IMG/VR virus record: IMGVR_UViG_3300029798_000001
From: a virus
Lineage: Duplodnaviria > Caudoviricetes
Strand: one strand, 5' to 3'
DNA length: 64,000 nucleotides
The position numbers and the translations under genes are program-made. Under the pieces are notes generated by a model. The model did no database searches and had not been told where the DNA came from. It saw only the letters and a list, made by a program, of their open reading frames with translations. Positions 13,295 to 63,827 of the stretch are shown here, piece after piece (position 1 is the first letter of the stretch; each line of letters opens with the position of its first letter).

Positions 13295-13816
13295 ATGGAC
13301 TTAATGATCGACCTGGAAGGCCTGGGAACAGGACCTGATACTACTATTTTAACTATTGCCGCACAGGCTTTTGATCCGTTTGGCTCCGGCTATTACGATC
13401 AACAATACTATGCCCGCATTACCTTAGAAAGCCAACCCAATCGTAGCATACAACAAGATACTATCGATTGGTGGGCTACTCAGCCTGCGGCCGCCCGTGA
13501 TGAGGCATTTATGGAAGAAGGTCGCATTGATTTAGATCAAGCATTAGATAGTCTAGGCAAATTAATTTGGCATGCTAAACGAATCTGGGCACAAGGTCCA
13601 ACTTATGACATGAACATTCTGGAAGACGCCTACAAAAGTTATAATAAACCCCTTCCGTGGCAGTTCTATGCTGTTCGTGATAGTCGCACTGTGTTCAGCT
13701 TATGGCCAGAACTACCGAAGCCTCCTACTACACACCATGCTCTTGAAGACTGCCGCAGACAAATAGACATGCTACAACAAACTCTTCGACAATTAAATGT
13801 AAAGGCTCTGGCGTAA
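13295..13816 (+). CDS. DEDDh 3'-5' exonuclease / exoribonuclease (DexA / RNase AS-like)
   Basis: LMIDLEGLG, WAQGPTYD, RDSRT, HHALEDC motifs. Confidence 0.85.
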   Translation: MDLMIDLEGLGTGPDTTILTIAAQAFDPFGSGYYDQQYYARITLESQPNRSIQQDTIDWWATQPAAARDEAFMEEGRIDLDQALDSLGKLIWHAKRIWAQGPTYDMNILEDAYKSYNKPLPWQFYAVRDSRTVFSLWPELPKPPTTHHALEDCRRQIDMLQQTLRQLNVKALA

Positions 13817-14919
13817 TGTCTAATAATACTTTTATTTGTAAAGCACCTTGGACTAGCATTGCTTTTCAACCTACCGGTGTAGCACCTTGTTGTATTTTTG
13901 ATTTAGATAAGGTCGAACAGTTCACAGATCCGCAGAATTTATTTCAACAAATTAAAACAGATTTTAAAAGTGGTAAAATACCATCAGGGTGTTCTAAATG
14001 TAATGAGAATATAACCCATGGATTACCTGGATACTATACCGGGTTTGACCAGTACACAACCGACTTTAATGAAACAATTATACAAGAAATCAATCTTAAA
14101 GCAAATAATTTTTGTAATTTGGCCTGCAGGAGCTGCGGCCCACATTTTAGTTCTAAATGGGAAGAAGAATTTAAAGGAACAATTATTATAACTAATGATG
14201 AGCAAGTTATGAGCAAGATTGGTCAGCTGGATATTTCCAAGTTAAAAACTATTATATTTGCCGGCGGTGAACCAACTATGTCCCCAGACCATGTAAAGTT
14301 ACTTAACATCCTGTTACAGAGTAATCACACAACCCCAGTAATTCGTATAGCAACAAATTTACACAATTTAACATATAAAAATATTGATTTAATTTCTCTC
14401 TGGAAACATTTTCCTAATCTTTATTTAAATGTTAGTATTGACGCTATCGAAGACCGGGCAAAATATATTAGATCTGGCACTAATTGGGAAAAAATGGTTT
14501 TAAATTTAAAAAAGTTATTAAGTTCTAATATTACTTGCGACGTAAGTTTTACTATTAGTGCATTAAACATATGGTTTATTGAAGAAACGCTTGACTATCT
14601 AAGAAAAGAGTTTGACATCGAAGTACCTAACTTTAATATATTATCATCTCCTGATATTTTAAATCTTTCGGTTATCCCTTTAGAATTTAAAGAAAAATTA
14701 AATATCATGCTCAACAGATGCTTATCCAAGGGATATCAAGTAGAAAAAATTACTCAGTATCTAAATTCATACGATACATCTTTTTTATGGCAAAGTTTTT
14801 TAATTTATAATCTCTTGTTAGATACATCTCGACAAGAACAATTTTGTCAAACCTTGCCAATTTTTGACTCTTTAATTTCAAGATGGGTCAAACAACCAGA
14901 TGTAAAGGAATTAAGATGA
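13816..14919 (+). CDS. Radical SAM enzyme with N-terminal Cys-rich (SPASM/twitch-like) region
   Basis: CNLACRSC, GGEP, VSIDA; N-terminal CKAPW..CC..CSKC. Confidence 0.85.
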   Translation: MSNNTFICKAPWTSIAFQPTGVAPCCIFDLDKVEQFTDPQNLFQQIKTDFKSGKIPSGCSKCNENITHGLPGYYTGFDQYTTDFNETIIQEINLKANNFCNLACRSCGPHFSSKWEEEFKGTIIITNDEQVMSKIGQLDISKLKTIIFAGGEPTMSPDHVKLLNILLQSNHTTPVIRIATNLHNLTYKNIDLISLWKHFPNLYLNVSIDAIEDRAKYIRSGTNWEKMVLNLKKLLSSNITCDVSFTISALNIWFIEETLDYLRKEFDIEVPNFNILSSPDILNLSVIPLEFKEKLNIMLNRCLSKGYQVEKITQYLNSYDTSFLWQSFLIYNLLLDTSRQEQFCQTLPIFDSLISRWVKQPDVKELR

Positions 14920-15563
14920 TCATCGGTATCTCAGGGTTCCAAGGGTCAGGCAAAGATACCATCGCAGATTATCTGCAGAACATCTACGGATTTAAACGGG
15001 ACAGTTTTGCTGCCACATTAAAAGATGCTGTAGCCGCAGTATTTGGCTGGGATCGTGAACTACTTGAAGGCCGTACCACAGAATCTAGAACCTGGAGAGA
15101 AACTGTAGATCCGTGGTGGGCCAAACGGCTCAACATGCCCGATCTAACTCCTCGCTTGGTGTTACAAAAATGGGGCACCGAAGTAGCCCGCAAATCCTGG
15201 CACGATGATACGTGGATCGCCAGTCTTGAAAATAAACTAGTAAAAGCACACAACGATATTGTTATTACAGATGTTCGTTTTCCTAACGAAATACTGGCAG
15301 TACGCAACGCCGGCGGTATTGTTATTCGTGTTACCCGCGGACCCGAACCATCCTGGTATGGCGTTGCGTTGGCCGCAAATAATCACTTACAACCAAATGC
15401 CTCTGCAGAAATACTAACAGAGCTAGGCATACACCCTTCGGAATGGGCATGGGTTGGCACCGAGTTTGATGCTACAATTGATAACAATTCTCCTGGACTA
15501 GACAATCTCTATCGCCAGGTTAAAGATCTGGTTCTAAGTCTCCAGCCTTCCACGCCAGGTTAG
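14916..15563 (+). CDS. Deoxynucleoside monophosphate kinase, T4 gp1-like (start 14916)
   Basis: MIIGISGFQGSGKDT P-loop, FAATLKD, PRLVLQKWGTE, ITDVRFPNE; AAGGA upstream; ATGA overlap. Confidence 0.9.
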   Translation: MIIGISGFQGSGKDTIADYLQNIYGFKRDSFAATLKDAVAAVFGWDRELLEGRTTESRTWRETVDPWWAKRLNMPDLTPRLVLQKWGTEVARKSWHDDTWIASLENKLVKAHNDIVITDVRFPNEILAVRNAGGIVIRVTRGPEPSWYGVALAANNHLQPNASAEILTELGIHPSEWAWVGTEFDATIDNNSPGLDNLYRQVKDLVLSLQPSTPG

Positions 15564-15867
15564 ATTTAGCGACCTCTACTACACAATTTTGACAAACAGT
15601 TTTTAAATTTCTAACAGCACTATTATTCATGTTGCCGTCTACATGATATACTAGTAACTGTGCGGCATACTTTGCCCTAAACCCACATCGATCACATGTG
15701 GGTTTTTTCTTATATCCAGATTTGACCCATCGAGCTTCTGGAGGTTTTTGTCTCCGCCCTCTCTTAATACAATGGTCGCAACGACTGCGATAGTGGGCTA
15801 CACCATCTCGATGGTAGTTTACAGCACAAAATCGTTGACTACAGGCTAAACAAGTGGGTCTTTCCAT
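15520..15867 (-). CDS. Zn-finger HNH nuclease-like protein (start likely MERPTC at 15867)
   Basis: CxxC pairs; HVDGNMNN..NL.TVCQNC; ATAAGTA 5 nt upstream. Confidence 0.65.
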   Translation of the reverse strand: MERPTCLACSQRFCAVNYHRDGVAHYRSRCDHCIKRGRRQKPPEARWVKSGYKKKPTCDRCGFRAKYAAQLLVYHVDGNMNNSAVRNLKTVCQNCVVEVAKSNLAWKAGDLEPDL

Positions 15868-27683: not shown

Positions 27684-28451
27684 TTAAGTTTTAGATTTAC
27701 AGTTGTTAAAGTGCCAGCGTTTCGCATTACTTGCGTCGCTGGCTTTTTTACAATGCGGACAAACTAACAGTTCTCTTTTCTTCTTATGAGGCCCTGTTGG
27801 TTGTCTCATTTTAGCAAGAGATTCTTCTGTATGTTGTTTATTTTTGAAAGTTCCCGGTTTACCGTATCTTGGATTTTTTTCTCCGGCTAATTTTCCTTTT
27901 TGTTTAGCACGGATCTCATTGGCTTTTTCTAGTCCATACAATTCCTCATACGATACTCCGATCCTGTCACTACTATATGGTAATTTTTTAGGCTTTTCTT
28001 TTTTTGGTTTTGTTGACAATTTTTGTTTAAAAGATTTTTTGAATTTTGCTATTTTTTCCGCAGCCTTTTCCGCTCCATATAGTTCTTCATAAGTCTTGCC
28101 TTTGTTTAGAGAAGGCTTGCCTTTTAATCGCTCACTACTTGCCCGCCTCATCTCATCAGTCCATACCACACCGGTATTACCGCCACTTCCGGTTTCTTCA
28201 GTTAAATTGGCCCACTCGTTACTTGCGACTACATTCCATAGCCGACTATAATATTGTCCCCACTCGGCTACATCTTTATTATTTTTACACTCTTTCAATA
28301 TTTCTGTATCATAATCGTATCCGTGCTTTTCTAAATGAGAGCGCCAATAAGTTCCTGATCCTGGATAGGTATGCGGATTTTGTGCCGAGGTCTTGCCAAG
28401 ATATTTTAATCCAGTTATTCTATGAGTCTTTTTATATAGATAAATTTTCAT
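27684..28451 (-). mobile_element. Free-standing GIY-YIG homing endonuclease gene with NUMOD3-like repeats
   Basis: IYLYKK.H..TGLKYLGKT..YPGSG; NLTEETGSGG; KGKTYEELYG.EKA repeated; HTEESLAKM. Confidence 0.88.
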
Positions 28452-33778: not shown

Positions 33779-33781
33779 GTA

Positions 33782-34438
33782 ATGTTATCGCATTTAGATC
33801 GCATTATATTTCCAGACCGCTGTGAGGTAATAGAAGTTATACCGTCACAGCGGTATGTCTATCCTATTTTTAAAAATGGTAGATCAAGTTTATCTGAGGC
33901 TGCCGACAAGAATAATTGGCGGATTAGAATAAATAATCAAATTAAAAAAATTGATAGTATCGATGTAATTTTAAGAGATCCGCAAGACCGGTTAATTTCT
34001 GGAATCAATACCTTTATTCAAATGATCATTAGAGATAATCCGAGTCTCGATAAAAATACCGTGCAATGGTTCGCTCAAAATTATTTATATTTAAATCGGC
34101 ACTACTGTTCACAGTTTGTTTGGTTGGTAAATTTAGCAAGATATTTAAATATTGATGCAAAATTAAATTTCCTATCAATGGCTGATATTAATACAATTAC
34201 TATACTTAATAAACAACCGGTAGCTATATCTGCTACTAATGAGTTAGTTGCACAAATTAATCAAATACAAAATAATGAAATGTATCAACGAATCGACACA
34301 GTTATATTTAATTCTATTGGTCAATCAATGACCTTTAGAGAATTAATACAACATATTAAAAATACCGATCTAGCAGCTCACGAATATGTGATTGGGTATG
34401 CACAACAAATTTTAAAGCCAATTAATGCATTGTCCTAG
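33782..34438 (+). CDS. Sulfotransferase-fold protein
   Basis: YPIFKNGRSSL (5'-PSB-like) and ILRDPQDRLISG (3'-PB-like). Confidence 0.55.
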   Translation: MLSHLDRIIFPDRCEVIEVIPSQRYVYPIFKNGRSSLSEAADKNNWRIRINNQIKKIDSIDVILRDPQDRLISGINTFIQMIIRDNPSLDKNTVQWFAQNYLYLNRHYCSQFVWLVNLARYLNIDAKLNFLSMADINTITILNKQPVAISATNELVAQINQIQNNEMYQRIDTVIFNSIGQSMTFRELIQHIKNTDLAAHEYVIGYAQQILKPINALS

Positions 34439-35300
34439 ACTAGATCACTTTGTTCGCTTTAATCACAACGGTACAGTTAGTCGGTGTGGACACATGGTCA
34501 ATCCACCTGAGTTTGACTCATTGTTGGACATGGAATCGAGTATATGGTTGGCAAAAACCAAAGAAAAGATGTCAAACAATCACTGGCCCACGGAATGTGT
34601 CAGATGTCACCAAACCGAACCCGATAGCATAAGAGAGTATGCTATAAAATTAAATAATCAAACAGCACAGCAAGATTATCTACAAGTAGGGGGTGTATTA
34701 GATAATTTATGTAATGCCGCTTGTCAAACTTGTAATGAAAATTTAAGTAGTAGAATAGGTAGTCTAAATGGTCCTGGATTTCCAATAATTAATAATCTCG
34801 GTCAATTTTATAATTTGCCACAAGAGCGAATTGTCCACTTAGATGTCAACGGCGGCGAACCTAGTTATAGTAAAAACTATAAGAAAATTTTATCTAACTT
34901 ACCACCCAATTTAAAAACACTTAGACTGAATACAAATTGTAGCACAGTATTAACTGAGTTAGTTAATATAGCCAATCAAGGCATTGAAGTTACCGTTACA
35001 GTTAGTTGTGACGGAATAGGATCAGTTCATGATTTTGTGCGTTGGCCAATACCATGGCAAGACTTTTATAATAATTTAATGACTTATAAAACAATGCCAG
35101 TAAACTTAAATTTATGGACAACAGTTAGTATTTTAAATGTCGACGATTTACCTAATATTCAAAAGTTTGCCCAAGAGCATAATATTGATCACAGTTACGC
35201 CTATTTAAAATCGCCATTTGAGTTGAGTGTCGATAATACTGATGCTGGTGCCAGAGAAGCATACATACAAAAACAAAAACAACTTAGGGGTATATTATGA
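34425..35300 (+). CDS. Radical SAM enzyme with N-terminal Cys-rich region
   Basis: CNAACQTC, GGEP, LNTNC, VSCDG; N-terminal CPRL..RCGH..ECVRC. Confidence 0.85.
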   Translation: MHCPRLDHFVRFNHNGTVSRCGHMVNPPEFDSLLDMESSIWLAKTKEKMSNNHWPTECVRCHQTEPDSIREYAIKLNNQTAQQDYLQVGGVLDNLCNAACQTCNENLSSRIGSLNGPGFPIINNLGQFYNLPQERIVHLDVNGGEPSYSKNYKKILSNLPPNLKTLRLNTNCSTVLTELVNIANQGIEVTVTVSCDGIGSVHDFVRWPIPWQDFYNNLMTYKTMPVNLNLWTTVSILNVDDLPNIQKFAQEHNIDHSYAYLKSPFELSVDNTDAGAREAYIQKQKQLRGIL

Positions 35301-35872
35301 ATACAAATATATTTAAACCGTATCTAGAATTGAAATGCGATAATCTAGAAGTAATATCGGCTAACATTTACAAATTTTTACAAACCGAAACAGAATTAAC
35401 AACCAACGGTGCACTTGGTTGGCAATTTATTGACTGTAAAAAATTATTAAAAATGAATACAGAATTATTAAAATTTTTTATAGGGCATAAACTAGCACCA
35501 AAAGATGCAGCAGTTGTAATTTTAACAGAAACAGGACAACTTCCGTTACATATGGATGAATTACCAGTGACAGCAAAAATTAATATGCCGGTAATTAATA
35601 CTAGCGGCTGGGTAAACCAATGGTATTCGATCAGCGAGGATGATTTAATAGATTGCCCAACGGTAATTAATCGATTCGGTAACAGTGTTGAGGATTTAAC
35701 AAATTTGCCAGCAGAAGCATTTACTCTGATAGCTGAAATACATAATTTAGATAAAGTAATAGCATTTAATTCAAGGATTCCTCATGTTGTAAACAAAACT
35801 ACAGCCACTATAACTCCTCGGATTATAGCTACTTTTACATTTCATAATGAACCACTGGAGTTATTAAAATAA
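35297..35872 (+). CDS. Putative 2OG-Fe(II) oxygenase-like protein
   Basis: LPLHMD (HxD), KINMPV, FNSRIPHVV (distal His), PRII. Confidence 0.55.
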   Translation: MNTNIFKPYLELKCDNLEVISANIYKFLQTETELTTNGALGWQFIDCKKLLKMNTELLKFFIGHKLAPKDAAVVILTETGQLPLHMDELPVTAKINMPVINTSGWVNQWYSISEDDLIDCPTVINRFGNSVEDLTNLPAEAFTLIAEIHNLDKVIAFNSRIPHVVNKTTATITPRIIATFTFHNEPLELLK

Positions 35873-36408
35873 AAATTGCAATCACCGGGCATACTGCTGG
35901 TATTGGGGAAGCTCTTGCCCGGGCATATAGTATTGATGGTCACGAAATTGTTGGATTGAGCAACCGCGAAGGCAATAATATTCGTAACACACTTAAAATT
36001 TGTAACCAAATTGAACCATGCGATGTTTTTGTTAATAACGCACAAGCTGGATATGCACAAACAGAATTATTATTCGAAATGGTCACTCGCTGGCAAGGAA
36101 CAAAAAAACATATTATTGTAATTAGCACTATGATGACACAAGAACCAGTATCATCAATTTCCGAATTAGTTACGGATCATTATCGTGTGCAAAAAGTTGC
36201 CTTAGAAGAAGCAGTGCATCAAATACGACATCGCCGACTTGGAGTAACAATTACTATAGTTCGTCCTGGTAATATAGCTACTAGTCTAGATAAAACTGTA
36301 CCACCAGCCGCGGATGTTAACAATTGGGCAAGAACATTATTGGATTTAGTTGATATGGCCAATAACAATAATTTAGTAATACCAGATATATCATTAGGAG
36401 CACTATGA
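35869..36408 (+). CDS. Short-chain dehydrogenase/reductase-like protein; apparent start codon is ATA at 35869
   Basis: Frame upstream of the track start reads (I)KIAITGHTAGIGEALA; FVNNA, YRVQK; paralogous to the next gene; GGAG 8 nt upstream of the ATA. Confidence 0.7.
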   Translation: MKIAITGHTAGIGEALARAYSIDGHEIVGLSNREGNNIRNTLKICNQIEPCDVFVNNAQAGYAQTELLFEMVTRWQGTKKHIIVISTMMTQEPVSSISELVTDHYRVQKVALEEAVHQIRHRRLGVTITIVRPGNIATSLDKTVPPAADVNNWARTLLDLVDMANNNNLVIPDISLGAL

Positions 36409-36953
36409 AAATAGCAATTACAGGACATACTCGCGGACTTGGAGCAGAATTTAAAAAAACATACGAAGCCGATGGCCACACAGTATTAGGATTTAGTCGT
36501 GGTAATGGATACGATCTAAGAGATTGGAGCATGATGCAAAAAATGTTGTCGCAAATCAACGACTGCGATATGTTTATTAGCTGTGCTAAACCTGATTTTG
36601 TACAAACAACTATTTTATATGAGTTATGGAAACAGTGGAACGGACAAAATAAAGTTATTATAAATATTAGTTCTATTTTAACATATTTGCCAACTTGTAC
36701 GCCTGATTTATTTAATGACCCGATGATGGATTTATATCGCACATCAAAATTATCGTTAAACGAAGCTAGTACGCAACTGGCGTTTAAAAGCCACCTGCCT
36801 AAAATTATGTTAATAAAACCCGGGCATTTATACAATCGGCCTATAACAACAGAGCAACAATTAAAACTATCTACATGGGTTAGTACTTTTAAATCTATAG
36901 TAGAATTAGCACAACAAAACAAGTTAATCATAAAAGAACTTACACTAGCATAA
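36405..36953 (+). CDS. Short-chain dehydrogenase/reductase-like protein
   Basis: MKIAITGHTRGLG Rossmann motif, IINISS, YRTSK (YxxxK). Confidence 0.8.
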   Translation: MKIAITGHTRGLGAEFKKTYEADGHTVLGFSRGNGYDLRDWSMMQKMLSQINDCDMFISCAKPDFVQTTILYELWKQWNGQNKVIINISSILTYLPTCTPDLFNDPMMDLYRTSKLSLNEASTQLAFKSHLPKIMLIKPGHLYNRPITTEQQLKLSTWVSTFKSIVELAQQNKLIIKELTLA

Positions 36954-38113
36954 TGACACCAAAAGAATATTTAACTAAAAAAAGTTTTTGTACTTTGCCA
37001 TGGTTGGGAGTTTATATACAGCCCGATGGAGGTGTACGAAATTGTGCTATTACAAAAACAACTATAGGTAATATAAACACACAACCATTGATTGATATAT
37101 TACACAATGATGTTAATCAAAATATTAAAAAAGATATGTTAGAGGATGTATTACATGAAAGATGTAGTCACTGCCATGGATTGGAAAAAAATCAAAAATT
37201 TAGTGTAAACTCGATTAGTAATCGAGTTTGGTATTTAAAAACATTAACTATTAAAGATTTGGATTTTTTTGACAAAACTGAAAACTATCGATTAAAAATG
37301 TTAGATCTTCGTTGGAAAAATACCTGTAACTTTGCTTGTATATATTGTGGTCCTGATTTAAGTAGCTCGTGGGCAAACGAATTAAATCTGCCACAACATA
37401 TAAACGATACTGCATTACAACAATCGTTGGATTACATTTACGATAATCTTAGCACAGTGGATCACATTTATTTGGCTGGCGGAGAGCCATTGATGATTAA
37501 AGAAAATTTAGTATTATTAACTCGAATTAAAAAAATTAATCCCGAAGTAGAAATACGAATTAACACTAATTTAAGTTTAATTAATAATGAAATTTATAAT
37601 TTGCTTAAGACATTTAAAAATGTACATTGGACAGTTAGTGTTGATGGCATTGGATCAGAATTTGAATATGTTCGATACGGCGGAGTCTGGAGTCAGTTTG
37701 TTACAAATTTACAACAATTGCAACAGGATTTTGAAAAAATTAATTTTAATTCTACTTGGTGTATTTTAACAGCCCACGGTGTTTTAGATTGTATAGATTT
37801 TTTACAAAATTTAGGATTCCATGAAAATTGTTTTATTGTAAATCCGTTGGATGATCCTAAGGTATGGCATGTAGGACATTTGCCCAATTTAGCATTATCA
37901 AAACTTAGTGATAGAATTAAGAGCAAATTGACCGGGGCTAACACTAACTATTCTCTTTACAATTCGTTGACTTTAATGTTAAACTATATATCAACGCCGA
38001 TTGAAAAAAATATTAAAGCAACATTTAATGAATTAACCAAAATTGATTTAAGAAGAAAATTAGACAGCAGTAAGATTTTTACAGAATTATATAAACTTAA
38101 AGAAGGAAAATAA
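36953..38113 (+). CDS. Radical SAM enzyme with N-terminal SPASM/twitch-like region
   Basis: CNFACIYC, AGGEP, INTNL, VSVDG; N-terminal FCTLPW..PDG.VRNC..RCSHC. Confidence 0.88.
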   Translation: MTPKEYLTKKSFCTLPWLGVYIQPDGGVRNCAITKTTIGNINTQPLIDILHNDVNQNIKKDMLEDVLHERCSHCHGLEKNQKFSVNSISNRVWYLKTLTIKDLDFFDKTENYRLKMLDLRWKNTCNFACIYCGPDLSSSWANELNLPQHINDTALQQSLDYIYDNLSTVDHIYLAGGEPLMIKENLVLLTRIKKINPEVEIRINTNLSLINNEIYNLLKTFKNVHWTVSVDGIGSEFEYVRYGGVWSQFVTNLQQLQQDFEKINFNSTWCILTAHGVLDCIDFLQNLGFHENCFIVNPLDDPKVWHVGHLPNLALSKLSDRIKSKLTGANTNYSLYNSLTLMLNYISTPIEKNIKATFNELTKIDLRRKLDSSKIFTELYKLKEGK

Positions 38114-38115
38114 CC

Positions 38116-39174: not shown

Positions 39175-39176
39175 TA

Positions 39177-39431: not shown

Positions 39432-39433
39432 GC

Positions 39434-40591
39434 ATGAGTTTTCCATCTGATGACTTTTACTGTAATCAAAAATTTAATTGGTTGTCAGTTGATCTTGAAA
39501 AAAGATTAACATATTCTTGTTGTGCTGCCGTTCCTGCTAAAATTGATGTATTGTGGCTTAACAAAAACCCTGGAAAACTTTTTAATACGCCTCAGCTAAT
39601 ACACGAGCGGCAGTTGATGCTTAATAATATTCCCGTCGCCAGTTGTAAAACTGCTTGTTGGGATCCGGAGCAACAGGGTCTAGTAAGTCGCCGTGCCCTA
39701 TGGAAAAGCAATATTAAAACACACAGTAATTTAGAGTCGCACCCGACAACATTAAACATTATTTTAGGATCTAACTGTAATTTAACTTGTTCGTATTGCG
39801 ATAAACAATATAGCACCTCGTGGTTGCAGGATATTAATAATGTCGGGCCATATCTCGATATTCCTAAATTTAAATTAACGCCAGTGGATCAGCTAATATT
39901 AAATATTAGTCAAAAAGAACATCAAGACTCACCCGGGTTTAACACATTAATTAATGAAATTGAATCATTTGATAATATAGATCAAATAATTATTACTGGC
40001 GGCGAGCCATTTTTATTTAATAATCTGCCCTCATTATTAAATAAGTTGCACACCGCCGCAAAGATTAGGGTATATACAGGTCTGGGCGTTAATACTACAC
40101 GGCTAAAAACCCAGCTTGACAAAATTAATAAAGTTGAAAATTTAACTATAGTTGTTAGTGCAGAGAATATTGGTAAATTTTATGAATTCAACAGATATGG
40201 AAATAGTTACGATAATTTTTGTAAAAATCTTAACTTGCTACGAGAGTACAAAGTTAATCTTAAGTTTAGCGCAGTAGTAAGTAATTTAACTATTTTTGGA
40301 TTAGTTGATTTTGTAGAGCAGTACGGTGACGAAAATATAATTTATCAGTTATGCAACGATCCAACATATCTAAAAGTTAATGTCCTAGATTTAACAAGTG
40401 TGGATAAGTTAATTCCTGCAATCAAATCAAGCAACATTTTAATTAAAGATGCGATTATACAAAATTTAAAAATCTCAAGCACAAAAGAACAACAGCAACA
40501 CTGTTCAATTTTTCTGAAAGAATTTGCTCGTAGGCGTAATTTAAATCTTGACATTTTCCCTCACAGTATGTTACAATGGTTAAATCTATAA
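39434..40591 (+). CDS. Radical SAM enzyme with N-terminal Cys-rich region
   Basis: CNLTCSYC, TGGEP, YTGL, VSAE; N-terminal YCNQKF..SCC..SCKTAC. Confidence 0.85.
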   Translation: MSFPSDDFYCNQKFNWLSVDLEKRLTYSCCAAVPAKIDVLWLNKNPGKLFNTPQLIHERQLMLNNIPVASCKTACWDPEQQGLVSRRALWKSNIKTHSNLESHPTTLNIILGSNCNLTCSYCDKQYSTSWLQDINNVGPYLDIPKFKLTPVDQLILNISQKEHQDSPGFNTLINEIESFDNIDQIIITGGEPFLFNNLPSLLNKLHTAAKIRVYTGLGVNTTRLKTQLDKINKVENLTIVVSAENIGKFYEFNRYGNSYDNFCKNLNLLREYKVNLKFSAVVSNLTIFGLVDFVEQYGDENIIYQLCNDPTYLKVNVLDLTSVDKLIPAIKSSNILIKDAIIQNLKISSTKEQQQHCSIFLKEFARRRNLNLDIFPHSMLQWLNL

Positions 40592-40600
40592 AGGATTAGA

Positions 40601-41056
40601 GTGATGTGGTATAGTAAAGTTGTAGCCGACCTAGGCAACATTCCTGATTTTATTTCTCATTACGAGATTGAACTCGATGAAGCTAAACGCGACTGTCGAG
40701 TCGGTGGGTTAATTGAAAAAAATATTACGGCCTTGCCTGGAATAACCGAGCATAGGTTTAATCAGCTACAAGAGATCGAAGCGGTATTAAATTATCTTAA
40801 TATTCAACTACGAAAAATTCGCCGTAAGCATTTTCAAAAGTATTTAGAAGGCTATGCTCGTGCTCTAACCAGTCGTGATGCTGAAAAGTATGTAGATGGT
40901 GAAGATGAAGTAATTGATTTTGAAACATTAATTAATGAAGTGGCGCTGTTGCGTAACCGGTTTTTAGGCATTCTCAAAGGTATGGAAAGTAAAAACTTTA
41001 TGCTCGGGCATATTGTAAGATTACGAGCCGCTGGTATGGAAGATGTCCAGGTATGA
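40601..41056 (+). CDS. uvsY: Recombination mediator, UvsY-like
   Basis: KYLEGY..LTSRDAEKYVDGE, RNRFLGILKG..KNF.L..IVRLR.AG. Confidence 0.7.
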   Translation: MMWYSKVVADLGNIPDFISHYEIELDEAKRDCRVGGLIEKNITALPGITEHRFNQLQEIEAVLNYLNIQLRKIRRKHFQKYLEGYARALTSRDAEKYVDGEDEVIDFETLINEVALLRNRFLGILKGMESKNFMLGHIVRLRAAGMEDVQV

Positions 41057-41811
41057 TATTTACTAATCTAGAACAAAGTCATAATCATAGTTTAAACACA
41101 CTGAATGCACTACAAGAGTATGACGAATTTATGGAAAGTATTGCTACTCTAGCAGATCTCGGATGCGGCGCAGGATTGGATACAGAATGGTGGGCAACCA
41201 GAACCACTCGGGCAGATAATCCTAAACCACTTAATATCCAATGTACCGGAATTGATATTATTGAACAGTCGTTTGCCCCTAACAAATATACGAATGTTTC
41301 GTATCAAAGCACTAATTTTGAAAAAACAATAGCATTATCGGGGGATAAAAAATACGATGTATTATGGTGTCACGACGCATTTCAATATTGTATAGATCCA
41401 ATTGGAACCCTGAGTAACTGGTATAATATTGCTAACGACAACGGCATGTTGGTATTGATAGTACCAGAGACTATGGACATTCATCATAAACAGTTGGCAT
41501 TTATGCAACCGTCAGGGTGTTACTATCATCATACTATGGTTAGTCTTATACATATGTTGTCTGTGTCCGGGTGGGATTGCGGTGGCGGGTTTTTTCTAAA
41601 ACAACCGACTAATCCATGGTTGCATGCCGTAGTTTATAAATCAGAACATAAACCAATGGATCCTCGCGTAACTGGTTGGCATCAATTAAGCGAAATGAAT
41701 CTATTGCCAGAAACCGCTAAACAAAGCATCCAGGCACATAATTATATACGCCAACAAGATTTAGTGTTGCCTTGGTTAGATAAGAGCTTAATTTGGCTTG
41801 GTAATTATTAA
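41053..41811 (+). CDS. Class I SAM-dependent methyltransferase
   Basis: ADLGCGAG motif I; YDVLWCHDAFQY; NGMLVLIVP. Confidence 0.8.
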   Translation: MIFTNLEQSHNHSLNTLNALQEYDEFMESIATLADLGCGAGLDTEWWATRTTRADNPKPLNIQCTGIDIIEQSFAPNKYTNVSYQSTNFEKTIALSGDKKYDVLWCHDAFQYCIDPIGTLSNWYNIANDNGMLVLIVPETMDIHHKQLAFMQPSGCYYHHTMVSLIHMLSVSGWDCGGGFFLKQPTNPWLHAVVYKSEHKPMDPRVTGWHQLSEMNLLPETAKQSIQAHNYIRQQDLVLPWLDKSLIWLGNY

Positions 41812-41854
41812 AAACTGACAGATCAGCTAAATACTGTTATAGGAGATTTCAATA

Positions 41855-42340
41855 ATGGCACAAAACCGCACTTTACAATTTATAGGCCTTGCATACGGAG
41901 ATACACCGGTCTCTGTAACTGCCGAAATTAACGGAACTACAGTATTTTCGGGTGAAATATCTACTGTAAATTCTCCATTTCCACTTTCATCTGAAATAAA
42001 TTTATCAACCAATCCAGTCTTGTTCACAGTTAACGATTCTCCCTTGTTCCCAACAAATTTTTCTGGATCTTACCCAATGACAATATCAGCCACTGGCGGA
42101 TATGGACTAGTAGTAGGTGTTGTAACCTGCAATTATATGCTTCCTTCAGGTAATGCAAATAGTTTTGCATCTTGCTATTATAATGCCATTTCAAACGTTG
42201 GTGATCCTAGATCTAATGTGATTATAAATGGTAATCCGATTAAGTCGACACCTCCGCCGAATGGTGCTTGGTACTGGGAAGCAACTTCTCCAGGAAATAT
42301 TGTGTGCGATTTGAGTGTTGATTTAGGTAATGTTGCCTAA
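41855..42340 (+). CDS. Hypothetical late (probably virion) protein
   Basis: CTAAATA at 41827-41833 and AGGAG; beta-rich sequence. Confidence 0.65.
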   Translation: MAQNRTLQFIGLAYGDTPVSVTAEINGTTVFSGEISTVNSPFPLSSEINLSTNPVLFTVNDSPLFPTNFSGSYPMTISATGGYGLVVGVVTCNYMLPSGNANSFASCYYNAISNVGDPRSNVIINGNPIKSTPPPNGAWYWEATSPGNIVCDLSVDLGNVA

Positions 42341-43815: not shown

Positions 43816-45789
43816 ATGCGAACAGCCACAATTATAATCAAAGATGAAGTTAATATTAAAATAGAAGGCCTAGAGCTCGATGTTCGCCGTGCATTGGTAA
43901 ATGCGTTTAAGTATGATGTTCCGGGTGCTCGTTACTTACCTGCGGTTCGTCTTGGCCGATGGGATGGTAAAATTAGTTACTTTCAGCTCGGCGGTAGCAC
44001 CTATGTAAATTTACTACCAGAGATTATTCCTATACTTGAAAAGTTTAACTATGATATTGAGCTAGATGATCAACGGGACTATTCTACTACATTTGCGTTT
44101 GAGCAGGTAACAGAACAAACCTTTGGGCATATTATGTGGGGTAAAGGACATCCAATGGAAGGTAAACCAATGGAGTTGCGTGACTATCAAGTAGAGATCA
44201 TTAACAACTTCCTTGAGAATCCACAATGTATCCAGGAGATTGCCACTGGCGCTGGTAAATGTTTGGCTGGCGATACTAAACTGCGGTTATCAATTGATGA
44301 AAATACTGCTTTTGGAAAATTTATGCTAAATAAATTGCAACAGGAGCTGGATAATGATGTTACAAGAAATAATAAAGAATTATCCATCGGAAAGTTGGCA
44401 GAATATATTGAGGAGTTTTATGCAACAACTCTTATTGACAATATAGAAATAGATGTAGGTAATTTAGGCATAGTCGTTCCTGCTGTAGATAACACAGTTC
44501 AAGTAAATTGTTTTATCAAAAAATATAATCTTCCCATGGTTGAGTTGTCGTTTGATAATGGATATACAATCAAGGTTGCCAAAAATCACATACTACAATC
44601 CAGCGGCAGTGACATATATGCAAAAAATGTAGCAATTGGTGATAAATTAGATCATTTGGCAGGGTCTGTTGCAATTACTTCGATACGCTATATTGACAAT
44701 GAAGATTGTTATGATATATCAATCCCAGCACCACATTTATATTGTGATGCAAATGGATTAATACACCATAACACTGTGATCACAGCCGCACTGAGTAACG
44801 CCGTGACACCATATGGTCGCACTATTATTATTGTTCCTAATAAGAGTCTAGTAACACAAACAGAAAAAGACTACATCAACATGGAACAGGATGTGGGTGT
44901 GTTCTTTGGCGACCGTAAGGAATTTGGTCGACAGCATACTATCTGCACTTGGCAAAGTTTAAATGTCTTACTAAAGAATACAAAGAACTCTGTAGGCGAC
45001 ATTACCATACAAGATTTCCTAGAAGATGTTGTATGCGTTATTGTTGACGAAGTCCATATGGCCAAAGCCGACGCACTAAAGACTTTGCTCACAGGTGTAA
45101 TGAGCCGTATACCATTACGCTGGGGACTAACAGGAACTATACCCAAGGAACCATTTGAATTCCAAGCACTGAAGTGTAGTCTTGGCCCGGTTATTAATCA
45201 ACTTAGTGCTAGCGAGTTACAAGATCGAGGAGTCTTGGCACAATGCCATGTGAACGTGGTGCAGTTAGTTGATCATGCAGATTTTACCAATTATCAAAGC
45301 GAATTAAAGTTCCTATTGGAAGACCCCGATAGGCTTAAAACAATTGCACAACTAATCGCACAAGTTAACGCCACAGGTAATACACTGGTGCTAGTAGATC
45401 GTGTAGCTGCCGGGCATGCATTAGTGGACTTGTTAGGTGACCGGGCGGTGTTTGTTAGTGGTGCAACCAAAGCAAAGGCGAGGCAAGATGAATATGACGA
45501 AGTGGCAACTAGCACTGGGAAGATTATTATTGCTACCTACGGTATTGCTGCTGTTGGTATTAATTTGCCTAGGATTTTCAACCTGGTTCTCGTGGAGCCT
45601 GGAAAATCTTTTGTACGTGTTATCCAGTCCATCGGACGTGGTATTCGTAAAGCCGAAGACAAAGACCATGTACAAATATGGGATGTAACCAGCACCTGCA
45701 AGTTTGCCAAACGCCATTTAACTAAGCGCAAGCAGTTTTATAAGGATGCCGCATACCCCTTTACACAAGAGAAACTAGAATGGAAATAA
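43816..45789 (+). CDS. uvsW: SF2 helicase, UvsW-like, intein-containing
   Basis: ATGAGK/T Walker A split by an intein; VDEVH, GLTGT, QSIGRGIR. Confidence 0.9.
   Translation: MRTATIIIKDEVNIKIEGLELDVRRALVNAFKYDVPGARYLPAVRLGRWDGKISYFQLGGSTYVNLLPEIIPILEKFNYDIELDDQRDYSTTFAFEQVTEQTFGHIMWGKGHPMEGKPMELRDYQVEIINNFLENPQCIQEIATGAGKCLAGDTKLRLSIDENTAFGKFMLNKLQQELDNDVTRNNKELSIGKLAEYIEEFYATTLIDNIEIDVGNLGIVVPAVDNTVQVNCFIKKYNLPMVELSFDNGYTIKVAKNHILQSSGSDIYAKNVAIGDKLDHLAGSVAITSIRYIDNEDCYDISIPAPHLYCDANGLIHHNTVITAALSNAVTPYGRTIIIVPNKSLVTQTEKDYINMEQDVGVFFGDRKEFGRQHTICTWQSLNVLLKNTKNSVGDITIQDFLEDVVCVIVDEVHMAKADALKTLLTGVMSRIPLRWGLTGTIPKEPFEFQALKCSLGPVINQLSASELQDRGVLAQCHVNVVQLVDHADFTNYQSELKFLLEDPDRLKTIAQLIAQVNATGNTLVLVDRVAAGHALVDLLGDRAVFVSGATKAKARQDEYDEVATSTGKIIIATYGIAAVGINLPRIFNLVLVEPGKSFVRVIQSIGRGIRKAEDKDHVQIWDVTSTCKFAKRHLTKRKQFYKDAAYPFTQEKLEWK
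44260..44772 (+). mobile_element. Mini-intein (171 aa) in the helicase Walker A
   Basis: GAGK|CLAGDT ... YDISIP..HLYCDANGLIHHN|TVIT. Confidence 0.92.
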
Positions 45790-47444: not shown

Positions 47445-47887
47445 CATACCCGGGTTCTTTTGCTGGATATTTAATATGCAGCCCCGATCCAGAGATAGAC
47501 TATATAGCATCTCAGACGGTAGTAGTATCGGTGCAACAACATAATCGAGTGTTGGCCACTAAACTAATTGAAAAAATCGATGTAATCGGCCAATTCTTTG
47601 AATTAGCTTTTAATTATGTCGAGTTAACTGGAAATATTCAATTGATAATCGAGACACATTCTGTTGGCAATCAATTTAATAAAGATAATCCGATTACGAT
47701 AGACCAGTTAATACTTGATGATTTATTTACAATTCCTCATTTACTAATGTCGGGCAAGTTATTGAATAGTAATCAACAAGAGTTAGATACTGGTAATGTG
47801 TTATGGCAATCCGGACAATTAATATATACCTTTAATTTGCCAATTGTTAGTAACGTCGGTATTACGAATACTGGTATTAGTACATGA
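47438..47887 (+). CDS. Hypothetical protein
   Basis: 149-aa ORF overlapping both neighbours. Confidence 0.55.
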   Translation: MVTYPGSFAGYLICSPDPEIDYIASQTVVVSVQQHNRVLATKLIEKIDVIGQFFELAFNYVELTGNIQLIIETHSVGNQFNKDNPITIDQLILDDLFTIPHLLMSGKLLNSNQQELDTGNVLWQSGQLIYTFNLPIVSNVGITNTGIST

Positions 47888-48543
47888 GAATAAATCATAT
47901 TTTAAATATAGGGTATCCAAAATGCGGAACTACTTGGTGCTGGACCTTACTTACACAACAGACTTGGTTTACTAATCCTGGAGATAAAGAAAATAATGAT
48001 TTGATTGAACGAGTTACAGTAGCAGACTACACAAAAATATATATTGATAGTAATATCACCGCAAACTTTAGCACCGCAAATTTTACATTAGATCGATATA
48101 TTATAAAACAGCTTAGTGAACTGCCAACAACAACAGCTAGCATTATTCTTAGAAATCCATTTGATCTTTACTGGAGTCTTTATAATTTTATGCCAAATCC
48201 TCTTAATACGCCTTATAATACTTTTGTTAATAATTTGATTAAGCAATCTTGGTTTCATAGGCCTGCGCACATCATTAACCGATGGCAACAATTTTTTGAA
48301 AAAGACAGATTTTGCATATTTTTTTATGATGACCTTCAAAAAAACAGTTCTGATTTTTTTAATAACTACTGCAAACAAATGCGGCTTCCAACACCGACTA
48401 TTTTAGATACTAGCCTAGTGAATGTAACTGAATATAAAAATACTAGTAAGGAATTGCACCCCGATTTAGTGACATTAATAAATCAAGAAATTGATAATTT
48501 ACAAGTATATGTAGATTATGATGTATTAAAATGGAAACGTTGA
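47884..48543 (+). CDS. Sulfotransferase-family protein
   Basis: IGYPKCGTTW (5'-PSB) and ILRNPFDLYWSLY (3'-PB). Confidence 0.8.
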   Translation: MRINHILNIGYPKCGTTWCWTLLTQQTWFTNPGDKENNDLIERVTVADYTKIYIDSNITANFSTANFTLDRYIIKQLSELPTTTASIILRNPFDLYWSLYNFMPNPLNTPYNTFVNNLIKQSWFHRPAHIINRWQQFFEKDRFCIFFYDDLQKNSSDFFNNYCKQMRLPTPTILDTSLVNVTEYKNTSKELHPDLVTLINQEIDNLQVYVDYDVLKWKR

Positions 48544-60496: not shown

Positions 60497-61375
60497 ATGG
60501 ACGACCGCATCACAATCAACAAACTTGAATTTTATATTACTAATGTATGTAATTTAACCTGCTCTAACTGTAACAGATATAATAACTATAAATTTGCTGG
60601 TTGGCAAAATTATGATGATTATGCTGAAATTATTCAACGGTGGTCTAAAAAAATCAATGTAGTTAAAGCAATGATCCTAGGCGGCGAGCCGCTGCTTAAT
60701 CCCAGTATTAACAAATGGATCGAGGGTATTCGCACCACATGGCCCGATGGATACTCGCCAGAAATTATTACCAATGGTACTCGTCTTGATTTAGTTGACG
60801 GACTATACGATACTTGCCGTAAACATGGTTCCTGGGTAGCAGTAAGCGTACATCGAGACGCTGATATTGCACCTCTTACTGCTCGAATTAGAAATTTTTT
60901 AACACCACCAATACAAGAAGGTCCAGCCCTGCTGTCAAACACAAATTCAGATTATCAATTCATCGATTCCAACTTTGTTCAGGTTCATATATGGAAAAAT
61001 TTTGATTTTCTACAAAATAATATCATTGAGCGACCAGATGGTACTCGCACACTATGGAAAAGTGATCCGGCGGTAGCACATGCTATTTGCCCCCAAGTTC
61101 TGCATAAAAATTATCATTTTATCAATGGTAAAATTTATAAATGCGGACCGGCACCATTGATGGCCGAATTCGATCAACAATATCCGTTCGATATTTCAGA
61201 CGAAGATCGAGACATAATCCATACAGATCCCGGATTGAGTATTGACGAGTTTGATGAGCATGGCGAAGAATTTTTCAAAAACATCGATAATCCAATTGCG
61301 CATTGTAAATTTTGCCCAGACACATTTGGATGGCATCCAATTGAATTTAGCAATATTAAGCCAAATAAAATTTGA
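60497..61375 (+). CDS. Radical SAM enzyme
   Basis: CNLTCSNC, LGGEP, ITNG; C-terminal CPQ..YKCG..CKFC. Confidence 0.88.
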   Translation: MDDRITINKLEFYITNVCNLTCSNCNRYNNYKFAGWQNYDDYAEIIQRWSKKINVVKAMILGGEPLLNPSINKWIEGIRTTWPDGYSPEIITNGTRLDLVDGLYDTCRKHGSWVAVSVHRDADIAPLTARIRNFLTPPIQEGPALLSNTNSDYQFIDSNFVQVHIWKNFDFLQNNIIERPDGTRTLWKSDPAVAHAICPQVLHKNYHFINGKIYKCGPAPLMAEFDQQYPFDISDEDRDIIHTDPGLSIDEFDEHGEEFFKNIDNPIAHCKFCPDTFGWHPIEFSNIKPNKI

Positions 61376-61425: not shown

Positions 61426-61752
61426 ATGAAAAAAATTCTATTTGTTTTTCTATTAAGCATTGCTTCTTTGGCTCATGCTGATCGTTGGCGCCACGGTAGT
61501 GGACAATACTACTACCATCCCAGCTACGGTTGGGTAGCCCCTGCAATTATCGGAGGAGCAATTGGGTACAGCATGGCACGCCCGTATTATTATCCCCCAG
61601 CACCATATTACTATATACCTCAACCGATTGTAATTCAACAACAGCCAACTTATATGCAACAACCTTATCCGGCTGTTACAGGATATTATCAGGAAACTAT
61701 TACAGATGCTAACTGCAATTGTTTAAGAACAGTATTGGTTCCTAACCAATGA
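61426..61752 (+). CDS. Signal-peptide-bearing Pro/Tyr-rich protein
   Basis: MKKILFVFLLSIASLAHA; WVAPAIIGGAIGY; PPAPYYY. Confidence 0.75.
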   Translation: MKKILFVFLLSIASLAHADRWRHGSGQYYYHPSYGWVAPAIIGGAIGYSMARPYYYPPAPYYYIPQPIVIQQQPTYMQQPYPAVTGYYQETITDANCNCLRTVLVPNQ

Positions 61753-61905: not shown

Positions 61906-63300
61906 ATGGCATATTCAGATGCGGTGCTGAAACATTATGAAAATCCGTCTAATGTAGGCAGAATGGACCCGGCTGACGCTGATGTAGGCACAGGACTTGT
62001 GGGAGCTCCGGCATGCGGAGATGTTTTGCGGTTACAAATCAAAGTTGAAGATGGAATTATCACAGATGCAAAATTTAAGACATACGGCTGTTTGACCAGT
62101 AATGCTCCTGTTAATACTCCGACCTGTATTAAAAAAATAAAAGATTTAAAAATTGGTGATACGGTGCTGGCATGGAATGGTGAACTTATTGTCAATCAAA
62201 AAATTCGTGATATAATTAAACATTCAGTTGATATAAAAGATTTGTTGATAATTACTTTTCAGAGAGAAACAAGTAGAAACAATATTAACCCAGGTACTTT
62301 TTCTATTATTTGTACCAAAGAACATATATTCTGGAACGCTGATAATAAACCAATAGAAGCACAGCAATTACAGGCAGGCCAAGAATTGTACGAGATAACT
62401 GAGAATGAATTACGGATCCTTACCAATAATCGTCACCGAACAGAACTTAAACAAAAAAATAGTATAAGAATGAAAAAGTGGAATAAAGAATTTGATCACT
62501 CTTTATTACCTCAAAATCAACCTGGGTATGTGTGTAAAGATTTAAAAACTAAAAAGCAACGAGCAAGTACCGCTTCGATTAAAAACTGGCAAGATCCTGA
62601 TTATATTAAAAAATGGCAACAAGGAATGTCGCAACGAGACTGGTCTAAACCCACCAGCATTGAAAAAAAATATATTGATTTATTTGAAAAAAATAATGTA
62701 GCGGCAAGATGGAGTGCTGGCAAAATATGGATCCAGACAGACGTAGGACCAGCAAGTCCAGATTTTATTGTTCCTGGTAAGAAAAAATGTATAGAAGTTT
62801 ATACAAAGAAAATGCCAAAATTTATGCAAGATAGATCTGAAGAATCTAATTATGTACAAACTCGTAAAGAACAACTTGCAACAGCAGGATATGATTCATT
62901 ATTTTTGGCAATAGAAGATATTGCACACTCATTGCCAGAAGTACAAAATTTTATACATAATGGCATGAAAATTGTTGATATCTCGCCGATCTCTCATCTT
63001 AACCAGTTGCGTGGATGTGAGCGTGATGGTAATTTGGTTGTGGTATACGATTTAAAATTAGATGAAGGTGCTCATGTATATTTTACAAACAGAGTCGGCT
63101 CGCATAATTGTGGGTCGGCGATCGCAAGTAGTTCGCTCGTCACGGAGTGGGTCAAGGGTAAAACGCTGGAGCAAGCTGGCGCAATTAAGAATGCTGAAAT
63201 TGCAGAGGAACTCGCGCTCCCGCCGGTTAAGATTCATTGTAGTATCCTTGCGGAAGACGCTATTAAGGCCGCGATAGCGGACTACCAAAGTAAACACTAA
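61906..63300 (+). CDS. iscU: Fe-S cluster scaffold IscU, intein-containing (124-aa extein)
   Basis: HYENP.NVG, GAPACGD, KFKTYG|..|CGSAIASSSLVTEW, PVKIHCSILAEDA. Confidence 0.95.
   Translation: MAYSDAVLKHYENPSNVGRMDPADADVGTGLVGAPACGDVLRLQIKVEDGIITDAKFKTYGCLTSNAPVNTPTCIKKIKDLKIGDTVLAWNGELIVNQKIRDIIKHSVDIKDLLIITFQRETSRNNINPGTFSIICTKEHIFWNADNKPIEAQQLQAGQELYEITENELRILTNNRHRTELKQKNSIRMKKWNKEFDHSLLPQNQPGYVCKDLKTKKQRASTASIKNWQDPDYIKKWQQGMSQRDWSKPTSIEKKYIDLFEKNNVAARWSAGKIWIQTDVGPASPDFIVPGKKKCIEVYTKKMPKFMQDRSEESNYVQTRKEQLATAGYDSLFLAIEDIAHSLPEVQNFIHNGMKIVDISPISHLNQLRGCERDGNLVVVYDLKLDEGAHVYFTNRVGSHNCGSAIASSSLVTEWVKGKTLEQAGAIKNAEIAEELALPPVKIHCSILAEDAIKAAIADYQSKH
62089..63108 (+). mobile_element. 340-aa intein with a Vsr/DUF559-like endonuclease domain
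   Basis: CLTSNAPV start, CTKEHIF block B, VVYDL..HVYF..GSHN end, +1 Cys; internal PTSIE..PDFIVP..CIEV. Confidence 0.9.
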
Positions 63301-63312
63301 AGAGAGTAAAGT

Positions 63313-63507
63313 ATGCCACAAACTAATTTTGATGTAAAAGTGCAACCGTGGTGCCCTATAGAGAATACGCCATACGAAGGCTATTGTATTGGAGAATTTC
63401 CTACCGTAGAAAAACGACCAATTGGCCCGTGCGACCATTTTGAAACTTGTTTAAAGTTTAAAAATACAATGACTAGTTACGAGCAAGAAAATACAACCCA
63501 TCACTAA
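63313..63507 (+). CDS. Hypothetical protein
   Basis: 64-aa Cys-containing ORF between iscU and iscA. Confidence 0.5.
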   Translation: MPQTNFDVKVQPWCPIENTPYEGYCIGEFPTVEKRPIGPCDHFETCLKFKNTMTSYEQENTTHH

Positions 63508-63827
63508 TGATTACCGTAACTGATACAGCCGCTAAGAAAATTAAATCTAATTTAGATAAACGCGGGTCCGGTATAGGCATTCGCATTGGTGTAAGAACCA
63601 CCGGGTGTTCGGGACTTGCTTATGTGTTAGAATATGTAGACAGGGTTAATGGTGATGACACAGTATTTGACAGCAACGATGTGCAAGTAATTGTTGATGG
63701 TAAAAGTTTACCCATATTAGGTAATCTTGAGGTAGCCTATGTCCGTCAAGGACTCAACGAAGGCTTTGAGTTTAACAATCCCCAGGCCAAGGATCATTGT
63801 GGTTGCGGGGAAAGTTTTAGAATATAA
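63507..63827 (+). CDS. iscA: Fe-S cluster carrier IscA (HesB family)
   Basis: GCSGLAY, F.FNNP, CGCGESF. Confidence 0.95.
   Translation: MITVTDTAAKKIKSNLDKRGSGIGIRIGVRTTGCSGLAYVLEYVDRVNGDDTVFDSNDVQVIVDGKSLPILGNLEVAYVRQGLNEGFEFNNPQAKDHCGCGESFRI

Follow-up and report, generated by a model that had tools for sequence, protein, structure and literature searches.

Radical SAM genes of an uncultured lake jumbo myophage as candidate accessory modules at replication-gene junctions, and a gp32-uvsX cassette that may tailor a carbohydrate-like substrate

What do the radical S-adenosylmethionine (rSAM) genes scattered along the genome of a large lake phage do, and do they work together? This question was raised by a 64,000-nt stretch of IMG/VR record IMGVR_UViG_3300029798_000001 (Duplodnaviria; Caudoviricetes), hereafter the window, which comes from an abundant uncultured freshwater/lake jumbo myophage of the Rak2/Atu_ph07-like group. 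An earlier note on this DNA had listed five rSAM genes, two sulfotransferase-fold genes, two short-chain dehydrogenases/reductases (SDRs), a 2-oxoglutarate (2OG)-oxygenase-like gene, a methyltransferase, and iscU and iscA for iron-sulfur (Fe-S) cluster assembly, and had proposed that they make up one dispersed modification pathway to which the phage supplies the clusters. Our analysis favors another arrangement. The rSAM genes would be AT-rich accessory modules that occupy recombination hot spots flanked by conserved genes for replication and recombination, each gained and lost on its own across the phage population; one cassette among them would, during infection, tailor a carbohydrate-like substrate, for example a host nucleotide-sugar, an envelope glycan, or another glycan; and the isc genes would belong to the phage backbone. 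This is the best full explanation we can offer, and we give it an even chance of being right.

All five rSAM genes announced by the note (rSAM1 to rSAM5 in gene order, Table 1) were found at their positions and, judged from sequence, are genuine, intact, and predicted to encode enzymes. A single CxxxCxxC motif stands in each of the five open reading frames (ORFs), at residues 100, 96, 125, 115, and 18, respectively, and a GGEP motif occurs in 5/5. With the hidden Markov model (HMM) PF04055, whose threshold for the radical SAM superfamily is 29.5 bits, four of the five gave significant matches of 41-54 bits (rSAM1, 53.9 bits; rSAM4, 41.5 bits; rSAM5, 41.4 bits), whereas rSAM2 had no match to PF04055 and was recognised instead by NF033640, the NCBIfam model of twitch domain-containing radical SAM proteins. 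The cut-off of NF033640, 170 bits over the whole protein, was exceeded by rSAM1 (238.4 bits) and rSAM3 (255.7 bits); NF033640 was also the best family for rSAM4 (168.4 bits) and rSAM2 (118.1 bits), both scoring under the cut-off, and rSAM5, at 21 bits, is not a member.

The four NF033640-type genes share 20-25% identity and are best taken as anciently diverged paralogs. Ahead of the catalytic motif (C100xxxC104xxC107 in rSAM1 and C96xxxC100xxC103 in rSAM2), each has a set of auxiliary cysteines, namely C8/C25/C59/C62 in rSAM1, C3/C21/C58/C61 in rSAM2, C13/C31/C71/C74 in rSAM3, and C10/C29/C71/C75 in rSAM4. In rSAM3, a match to the SPASM domain PF13186 (residues 13-75) precedes the one to PF04055 (residues 123-258), and an alignment of 27 diverse NF033640-type members found C13/C31/C71(/C74), CxxxCxxC, and GGEP to be invariant. 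The AlphaFold2 model of rSAM3 was confident (predicted local distance difference test, pLDDT, 91.7). Against its solved or Swiss-Prot neighbours CteB, SkfB, anSME, MoaA, and NirJ, it gave template-modelling (TM) scores of 0.35-0.45; most structural matches spanned only the core (residues 113-325), and none of the characterised proteins in this comparison had the same architecture. A sequence search of solved structures returned weak SkfB and MoaA matches only.

The expectation that these would be uncharacterised rather than housekeeping enzymes held. Among the five proteins, the best scores were 31.9 bits for NrdG2 (cut-off 131), 30.9 for QueE (260), 40.0 for MoaA (284), and 38.1 for viperin (180), and PADLOC pVip matches covered the generic core only, at 21-42 bits. 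rSAM5 has its cluster motif at the N terminus and a CxxC at the C terminus; its best NCBIfam match was viperin (37.7 bits vs the cut-off of 180), and none of its 1451 metagenomic homologs carries a name. The gene is kept upstream of iscU in one related locus (L104) and is absent in another relative (G003). The small secreted-looking protein encoded between rSAM5 and iscU has 51% identity to its L104 counterpart.

As the note had described, the tailoring genes of the window abut core genes; these encode the 3'-5' exonuclease, deoxynucleoside monophosphate (dNMP) kinase, gp32, UvsX, and UvsY. Its by-eye impression that the inserts are AT-richer was borne out as well, with a mean GC of 0.333 for 11 tailoring genes (0.311 in rSAM1 and 0.290 in rSAM3) vs 0.406 for the 60 other genes of the window (Mann-Whitney p = 1e-6). 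For a survey of the junctions, related contigs were fetched around three anchor genes and the content of each junction was scored. The exonuclease and dNMP kinase genes overlapped directly in 56/76 relatives, and the remainder carried an rSAM1 homolog (1/76), a GIY-YIG-like gene (1/76), or another insert (18/76). Between gp32 and uvsX, 14/63 relatives had the cassette found in the window (12 whole, 2 partial) and one had an rSAM5-like gene, while the two genes were adjacent in 18/63 and separated by unrelated inserts in 30/63. At the third site, between uvsX with its following 84-aa ORF (o84) and uvsY, an rSAM gene with 22-50% identity to rSAM4 was present in 30/73 relatives and nothing in 40/73. 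Occupancy of the gp32-uvsX site was independent of that of the uvsX-uvsY site (odds ratio 0.75, Fisher p = 0.76), and rSAM presence or absence differed among phages whose UvsX proteins are 83-98% identical. Cultured relatives have gp32, uvsX, and uvsY next to one another. This survey indicates that what looks like coupling to core genes is explained by hot spots for insertion in the plastic periphery of a T4-like genome. Among the alternative inserts at the hot spots were genes for a hexapeptide acyltransferase and a formyltransferase, an AMP-binding enzyme, an Asp/Arg hydroxylase and a desaturase, as well as another rSAM gene and HNH endonuclease genes. At one exonuclease-dNMP kinase junction (L223), we observed a homolog, with 38% identity, of the antisense GIY-YIG-type gene of the window (27684-28451); its presence at the junction of rSAM1 suggests that these hot spots accept homing endonucleases and enzyme genes alike.

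Two other genes in this region do not follow the rSAM inserts. The methyltransferase after uvsY, confirmed by its Pfam matches, was retained in relatives with and without rSAM inserts, and is a backbone gene not linked to them. The 84-aa ORF, with its very acidic tail, was observed in nearly all relatives, rSAM inserted or not; its product may be a recombination accessory factor.

Only one set of genes, the gp32-uvsX cassette, behaved as a functional unit. Its order is sulfotransferase-like gene, rSAM2, an optional 2OG-like gene, one or two short SDRs, and rSAM3, and in most relatives the set of ST218, rSAM2, SDR, and rSAM3 was either there whole or missing altogether, with rSAM2 travelling together with ST218. 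The optional gene, o191, was found in 2/14 cassettes of the 63 UvsX-anchored relatives and also in one locus (L003) of the rSAM3 search. From gp32 onward there is no strong terminator within 32795-42340, and the cassette is therefore probably co-transcribed with gp32, uvsX, and uvsY.

Table 1. Coordinates of the radical SAM genes, companion genes, and other features of the window
Feature	Coordinates	Strand	Description
rSAM1	13816..14919	+	N-terminal-twitch radical SAM, 367 aa
ST218	33782..34438	+	divergent sulfotransferase-like; opens the gp32-uvsX cassette
rSAM2	34425..35300	+	short N-terminal-twitch radical SAM, 291 aa
o191	35297..35872	+	optional 2OG-Fe(II)-oxygenase-like gene
SDRa	35869..36408 (first canonical start 35956)	+	short SDR/epimerase-like
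SDRb	36405..36953	+	short SDR/epimerase-like paralog, 182 aa
rSAM3	36953..38113	+	N-terminal-twitch radical SAM, 386 aa; final gene of the cassette, abuts uvsX
uvsX	38116-39174		recombinase
o84	39177-39431		84-aa ORF between uvsX and uvsY; very acidic tail, D/E run ending YY
rSAM4	39434..40591	+	N-terminal-twitch radical SAM, 385 aa; between uvsX/o84 and uvsY
Methyltransferase	41053..41811	+	class I SAM methyltransferase after uvsY; PF08242, PF13847, and PF08241 matches
Intein in uvsW	44260-44772 within 43816-45789		171-aa mini-intein
ST219	47884..48543	+	PAPS-type sulfotransferase
rSAM5	60497..61375	+	radical SAM, other unnamed family
Secreted-looking protein	61426-61752		small; between rSAM5 and iscU; signal peptide, then Tyr/Pro-rich stretch
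IscU	61906..63300	+	scaffold with 340-aa intein at 62089-63108
IscA	63507..63827	+	A-type Fe-S carrier

The companion genes agreed with their earlier labels to different degrees. Of the two sulfotransferase-fold genes, ST219 has the 5'-PSB loop and the 3'-PB motif (YPKCGTTW and RNPFD) and matched the HMM PF00685 at 36.6 bits vs a cut-off of 22; its GC is 0.306. ST218 is divergent. Its KNGxSS and RDPxxRxxS align with the 3'-phosphoadenosine 5'-phosphosulfate (PAPS) loops PKxGTTW and RNPxD of ST219, and its Atlas leads were Sulfotransfer_2 and NKWYS, but the HMM libraries gave no match. The AlphaFold2 model of ST218 had a pLDDT of 84. An all-against-all structure search with ST218 placed sulfotransferases in each of the first 16 solved-structure rows, with carbohydrate sulfotransferases in the top VIA rows, but Z was only 4.5; a Foldseek search against the PDB found nothing at E <= 0.001, with matches at E > 0.07. 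Both SDRs are tandem paralogs of about 180 aa with TGxxxGxG and YxxxK (TGHTAGIG, NNA, and YRVQK in SDRa; TGHTRGLG and YRTSK in SDRb), and SDRb has about 28-35% identity to SDRa-type copies; their motifs thus agree with the label, while their Pfam matches stayed below cut-off and their Atlas clusters carry PF01370 and PF00106. Furthermore, SDRa has ATA in place of its ATG start. Its homologs begin MKIAITGH at an ATGA overlap, and the window reads ATAA at 35869-35872, which keeps the o191 stop and removes the SDRa ATG; the first canonical start is a TTG. SDRa may thus be either a start-loss pseudogene, redundant with the second SDR copy, or a gene initiated at a non-standard codon. In o191, an oxygenase-like pattern H85-x-D87...H163...R175 was observed that is invariant in 3 homologs, but family searches gave no significant match and the Atlas lead was weak (0.89).

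Both isc genes are present as the note had stated. IscU matched TIGR01999 at 198 bits (cut-off 192.4) in two stretches, together with Hint matches, and its intein sits exactly at a cluster-ligand cysteine, with the junctions TYG/C...HN/CGSAIASS (slashes marking the splice points). The exteins have the ligand cysteines C37, C402 (the residue at intein +1), and C445, and the GC of the intein is 0.33 vs 0.49 for the exteins. In all relatives examined, IscU is intein-free and 124-137 aa long. IscA scored 74.7 bits with PF01521 (cut-off 26.3), 110.7 with TIGR00049 (58.8), and 149.0 with TIGR02011, slightly below the cut-off of 150.6, and has the ligand cysteines C34, C98, and C100. In relatives, the isc genes lie at the syntenic place downstream of the helicase module, and among 14 related IMG/VR records, including both complete genomes, IscU was found in 8/14 and IscA in 9/14.

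The note had linked isc genes to rSAM load, and at the level of lineages this was observed: 16 and 12 rSAM genes were counted in the two complete genomes with isc, and seven cultured genomes without isc (Atu_ph07, Phosso, Vibrio 2.275.O, XaC1, CBB, RsoM2USA, and KVP40) have 0-5 each; an IscA protein search of all cultured phages found no jumbo relative. Within the lineage the link is loose. One relative (G004) has 16 rSAM genes and no isc gene in its 228 kb, and a 152-kb contig with 87% identical UvsX (G006) has intact IscU and IscA and 0 rSAM genes, so that the proposed tie between the phage isc genes and the inserts is not a strict one. A suspected decay of IscU in G006 was dropped, since the in-gene TGA was merely the stop codon. 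The isc genes are best read as a conserved backbone auxiliary function serving all Fe-S proteins of the phage. IscU and IscA would raise the cluster assembly capacity for this whole Fe-S load, presumably depending on host IscS for sulfur; IscS was not found in five large relatives.

To our knowledge, NF033640 has no characterised member, and membership therefore gives no function. The family is large, with 4254 clusters (50% identity) at E < 1e-10, and in its long members the same module is fused in tandem, in one case together with tetratricopeptide (TPR) repeats. Large relatives of the window phage have 12-16 PF04055 genes each, and 7-11 genes above the NF033640 cut-off (3 in a 149-kb fragment, G008); such genes occurred in 0/14 control and model genomes. 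In the relatives G001, G003, G004, G005, and G009 (loci L194-L200), N-twitch rSAM genes form tandem arrays of 5-9. We observed overlapping start and stop codons in the phage arrays, with interleaved carbamoyltransferases, GDSL esterases, and many family-less ORFs, and APS-kinase-like P-loop ORFs (277-293 aa) just past the arrays in G003 and G009, with a third in G008. The homologs in bacterial genomes are almost confined to Bdellovibrionota (Bdellovibrio, Halobacteriovorax, and Bacteriovoracaceae), again in multi-gene arrays (L286-L317); 28 such loci held 106 CxxxCxxC ORFs vs 140 other ORFs within 4.5 kb. Bdellovibrionota and large phages make an odd shared host range for one family.

A modest lean toward sugar or glycan tailoring comes from the gene neighbourhoods, both those of the phages and those of Bdellovibrionota. 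The phage arrays hold three genes each for carbamoyltransferases and GDSL esterases and one each for a UDP-glucose dehydrogenase, an epimerase, and a glycosyltransferase of type GT1; a KVP40 homolog has an annotated GT1 gene two genes upstream, and another phage has three glycosyltransferases inside its rSAM array. A ten-rSAM array in a bacterial metagenome-assembled genome is headed by an NTP_transferase (sugar-phosphate nucleotidyltransferase) and also has a GDSL esterase, and near the Bdellovibrionota arrays we found four DegT aminotransferases, two NeuB, and two GT2. The same lean comes from the sulfotransferase-like and SDR/epimerase-like genes of the cassette itself, and from the hexapeptide acyltransferase and formyltransferase among the alternative hot-spot inserts. 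In the proposed mechanism, the SDR step would oxidise or epimerise the substrate, the two rSAM enzymes of the cassette would carry out radical C-H chemistry, e.g., epimerisation, dehydrogenation, or deoxygenation, and the sulfotransferase would transfer sulfate from PAPS. That the 7-11 NF033640 copies per genome, together with sulfotransferase, SDR, and carbamoyltransferase enzymes, make a novel radical-tailored, possibly sulfated, carbohydrate- or nucleoside-like product is a tentative idea, and rather doubtful.

Several observations weigh against carbohydrate tailoring by an accessory cassette. Of the scanned neighbours of family members, only about 5-10% fall into sugar-related families, and the lean is modest because most neighbours have no Pfam match. 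Searches of two complete relatives and three large fragments found neither NTP_transferase nor GT2, and no MetK; without the first two, the phage would be unable to build a glycan alone, and the sugar substrate would therefore come from the host. The fold match of ST218 is weak, as the Z and Foldseek values given above indicate. Apparent co-transcription with gp32, uvsX, and uvsY suits work on DNA or nucleotides equally, most of the solved twitch/SPASM relatives modify peptides or proteins, and the rSAM-free contig with both isc genes intact counts on the same side.

It is therefore necessary to weigh what else the enzymes could do. Some or all of the rSAM proteins might, with the SDRs and sulfotransferases, hypermodify DNA or nucleotides while co-expressed with replication and recombination genes. 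rSAM enzymes take part in the synthesis of 7-deazaguanine (QueE) and in pathways of thymidine hypermodification, the inserts lie within the gp32-uvsX-uvsY unit, where 32795-42340 lacks a strong internal terminator, and next to the genes for exonuclease and dNMP kinase, and some Bdellovibrionota arrays have QueC-like and deaminase genes nearby. However, most relatives have the flanking core genes directly side by side, and the position of the inserts therefore reflects hot spots rather than function; moreover, the five proteins fall outside the QueE and NrdG families, the cassette has no glycosyltransferase or base-exchange enzyme, and switching rSAM genes on and off among phages so close in UvsX would be unusual for a genome-wide DNA chemistry. 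We consider this explanation unlikely. Equally improbable, in our judgement, is that the N-twitch enzymes cross-link, epimerise, or oxidise residues of phage or host proteins. The closest solved structures and profiles are indeed those of SkfB, CteB, anSME, SuiB, and PapB, Asp/Arg beta-hydroxylase-type genes recur near family members, and the fusion protein with TPR repeats is bacterial, but these structural and profile matches cover the generic core only, with TM < 0.45 and scores far below family cut-offs. No precursor-like short ORF travelled with the rSAM genes in either the window cassette or 10 phage arrays, which counts against a system of the kind that produces peptides synthesised on the ribosome and modified after translation (RiPPs); the packed arrays hold one short ORF (73 aa, L199), none is conserved or Cys/Gly-rich, and the 84-aa ORF before rSAM4 is retained where the rSAM is missing. 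The co-travelling sulfotransferase-like, SDR/epimerase-like, carbamoyltransferase, and UDP-glucose dehydrogenase genes are, furthermore, typical of small-molecule or sugar tailoring.

The pathway proposed by the earlier note, spread over 50 kb with a common substrate and requiring the phage isc genes, draws on the presence of all its parts in one genome, on their common low GC, and on the isc genes of rSAM-rich relatives. We regard it as very unlikely, since gain and loss proceed independently at each site, rSAM1 stood at its junction in a single relative of the 76, and the methyltransferase and isc genes belong to the backbone and occur without rSAM genes. A part in counter-defence, in which viperin-like enzymes make or destroy modified nucleotides against host immunity or transcription, would suit the fast hot-spot turnover, which is typical of arms-race genes, and the weak pVip or viperin profile matches of 5/5 rSAM proteins. 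These matches, however, are confined to the first half of the profile for viperin, with 21-42 bits vs 180, and the architecture differs, with an N-terminal auxiliary cluster and a C-terminal helical domain, which makes such a part highly improbable.

The placement of the source phage rests on its core genes. UvsX is 61-65% identical to the recombinases of cultured phages including Atu_ph07 (Agrobacterium), Phosso (Sinorhizobium), 2.275.O (Vibrio), XaC1, CBB, and GAP32, and the window also encodes tail sheath, gp32, UvsW, primase, and a DnaB-type helicase; at the megablast level, no DNA similarity to the window was found in cultured phages. A close UvsX is encoded on more than 600 IMG/VR contigs. 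Near-identical cassette DNA was found in freshwater/lake metagenomes of three studies dated 2016-2020, some samples of which may be the source of the window DNA. The mini-intein in uvsW was observed to interrupt the Walker A loop (GAGK/CLAGD...IHHN/T, slashes as above), and the relative L031 has the same gene without it.

Phages abundant in lakes thus invest in up to 16 oxygen-sensitive rSAM enzymes plus Fe-S scaffold genes of their own. With thousands of metagenomic members in NF033640, a single biochemical assignment would annotate many viral and Bdellovibrionota genes, and gain and loss at the hot spots supplies natural plus/minus pairs for finding the product. A radical-tailored product, if real, would represent virus-encoded biosynthetic chemistry without a characterised counterpart.

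How does this system compare with those already described? Within NF033640/PHROG 14086, four of the five window genes match end to end, with the four-Cys N-terminal domain, CxxxCxxC, and GGEP. In phages and Bdellovibrionota the family typically forms multi-paralog arrays, whereas the window copies are dispersed singly or in one small cassette, with no tandem array. With BtrN, MoaA, SkfB, anSME, and CteB they share a partial TIM-barrel core, the radical SAM cluster, and a Cys-rich auxiliary-cluster domain; the auxiliary domain of the solved twitch/SPASM enzymes is C-terminal, however, and that of the window proteins N-terminal, the TM scores are as low as those given, identity is 15-18%, and the scores stay below the cut-offs of all these families. 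Literature phrase searches on N-terminal SPASM and on phage or viral radical SAM returned no paper. Compared with the bacterial ISC system (IscS-IscU-IscA-HscBA-Fdx), the window IscU and IscA score near the gammaproteobacterial type with TIGR01999 and TIGR02011 and lack none of the ligand cysteines, but the phage encodes the scaffold and carrier only, with IscS not found in the five large relatives searched, and the window IscU would need protein splicing for function.

Fe-S scaffold genes together with many rSAM genes in phages have already been published descriptively. Marine T4-like environmental genomes carry genes for an A-type carrier or IscU and up to 12 rSAM genes (Nishimura 2017, PMC5332604), and the hypervariable regions of pelagimyophages contain rSAM cassettes (Zaragoza-Solas 2020, PMC7029224). 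The window resembles the former in its phage-borne IscU and/or A-type carrier and many rSAM genes, and the latter in that rSAM cassettes are the variable part between near-identical phages. It differs in belonging to a freshwater Rak2/Atu_ph07-like jumbo lineage rather than to marine T4-like phages of about 180 kb, and, compared with the marine phage gene sets, in the intein of its IscU. New here are the junction-by-junction population survey, the test of site independence, the tabulation of isc against rSAM genes, and the neighbourhood tallies, by which, beyond the marine reports, the rSAM family, its insertion sites, and the independence of its modules are defined.

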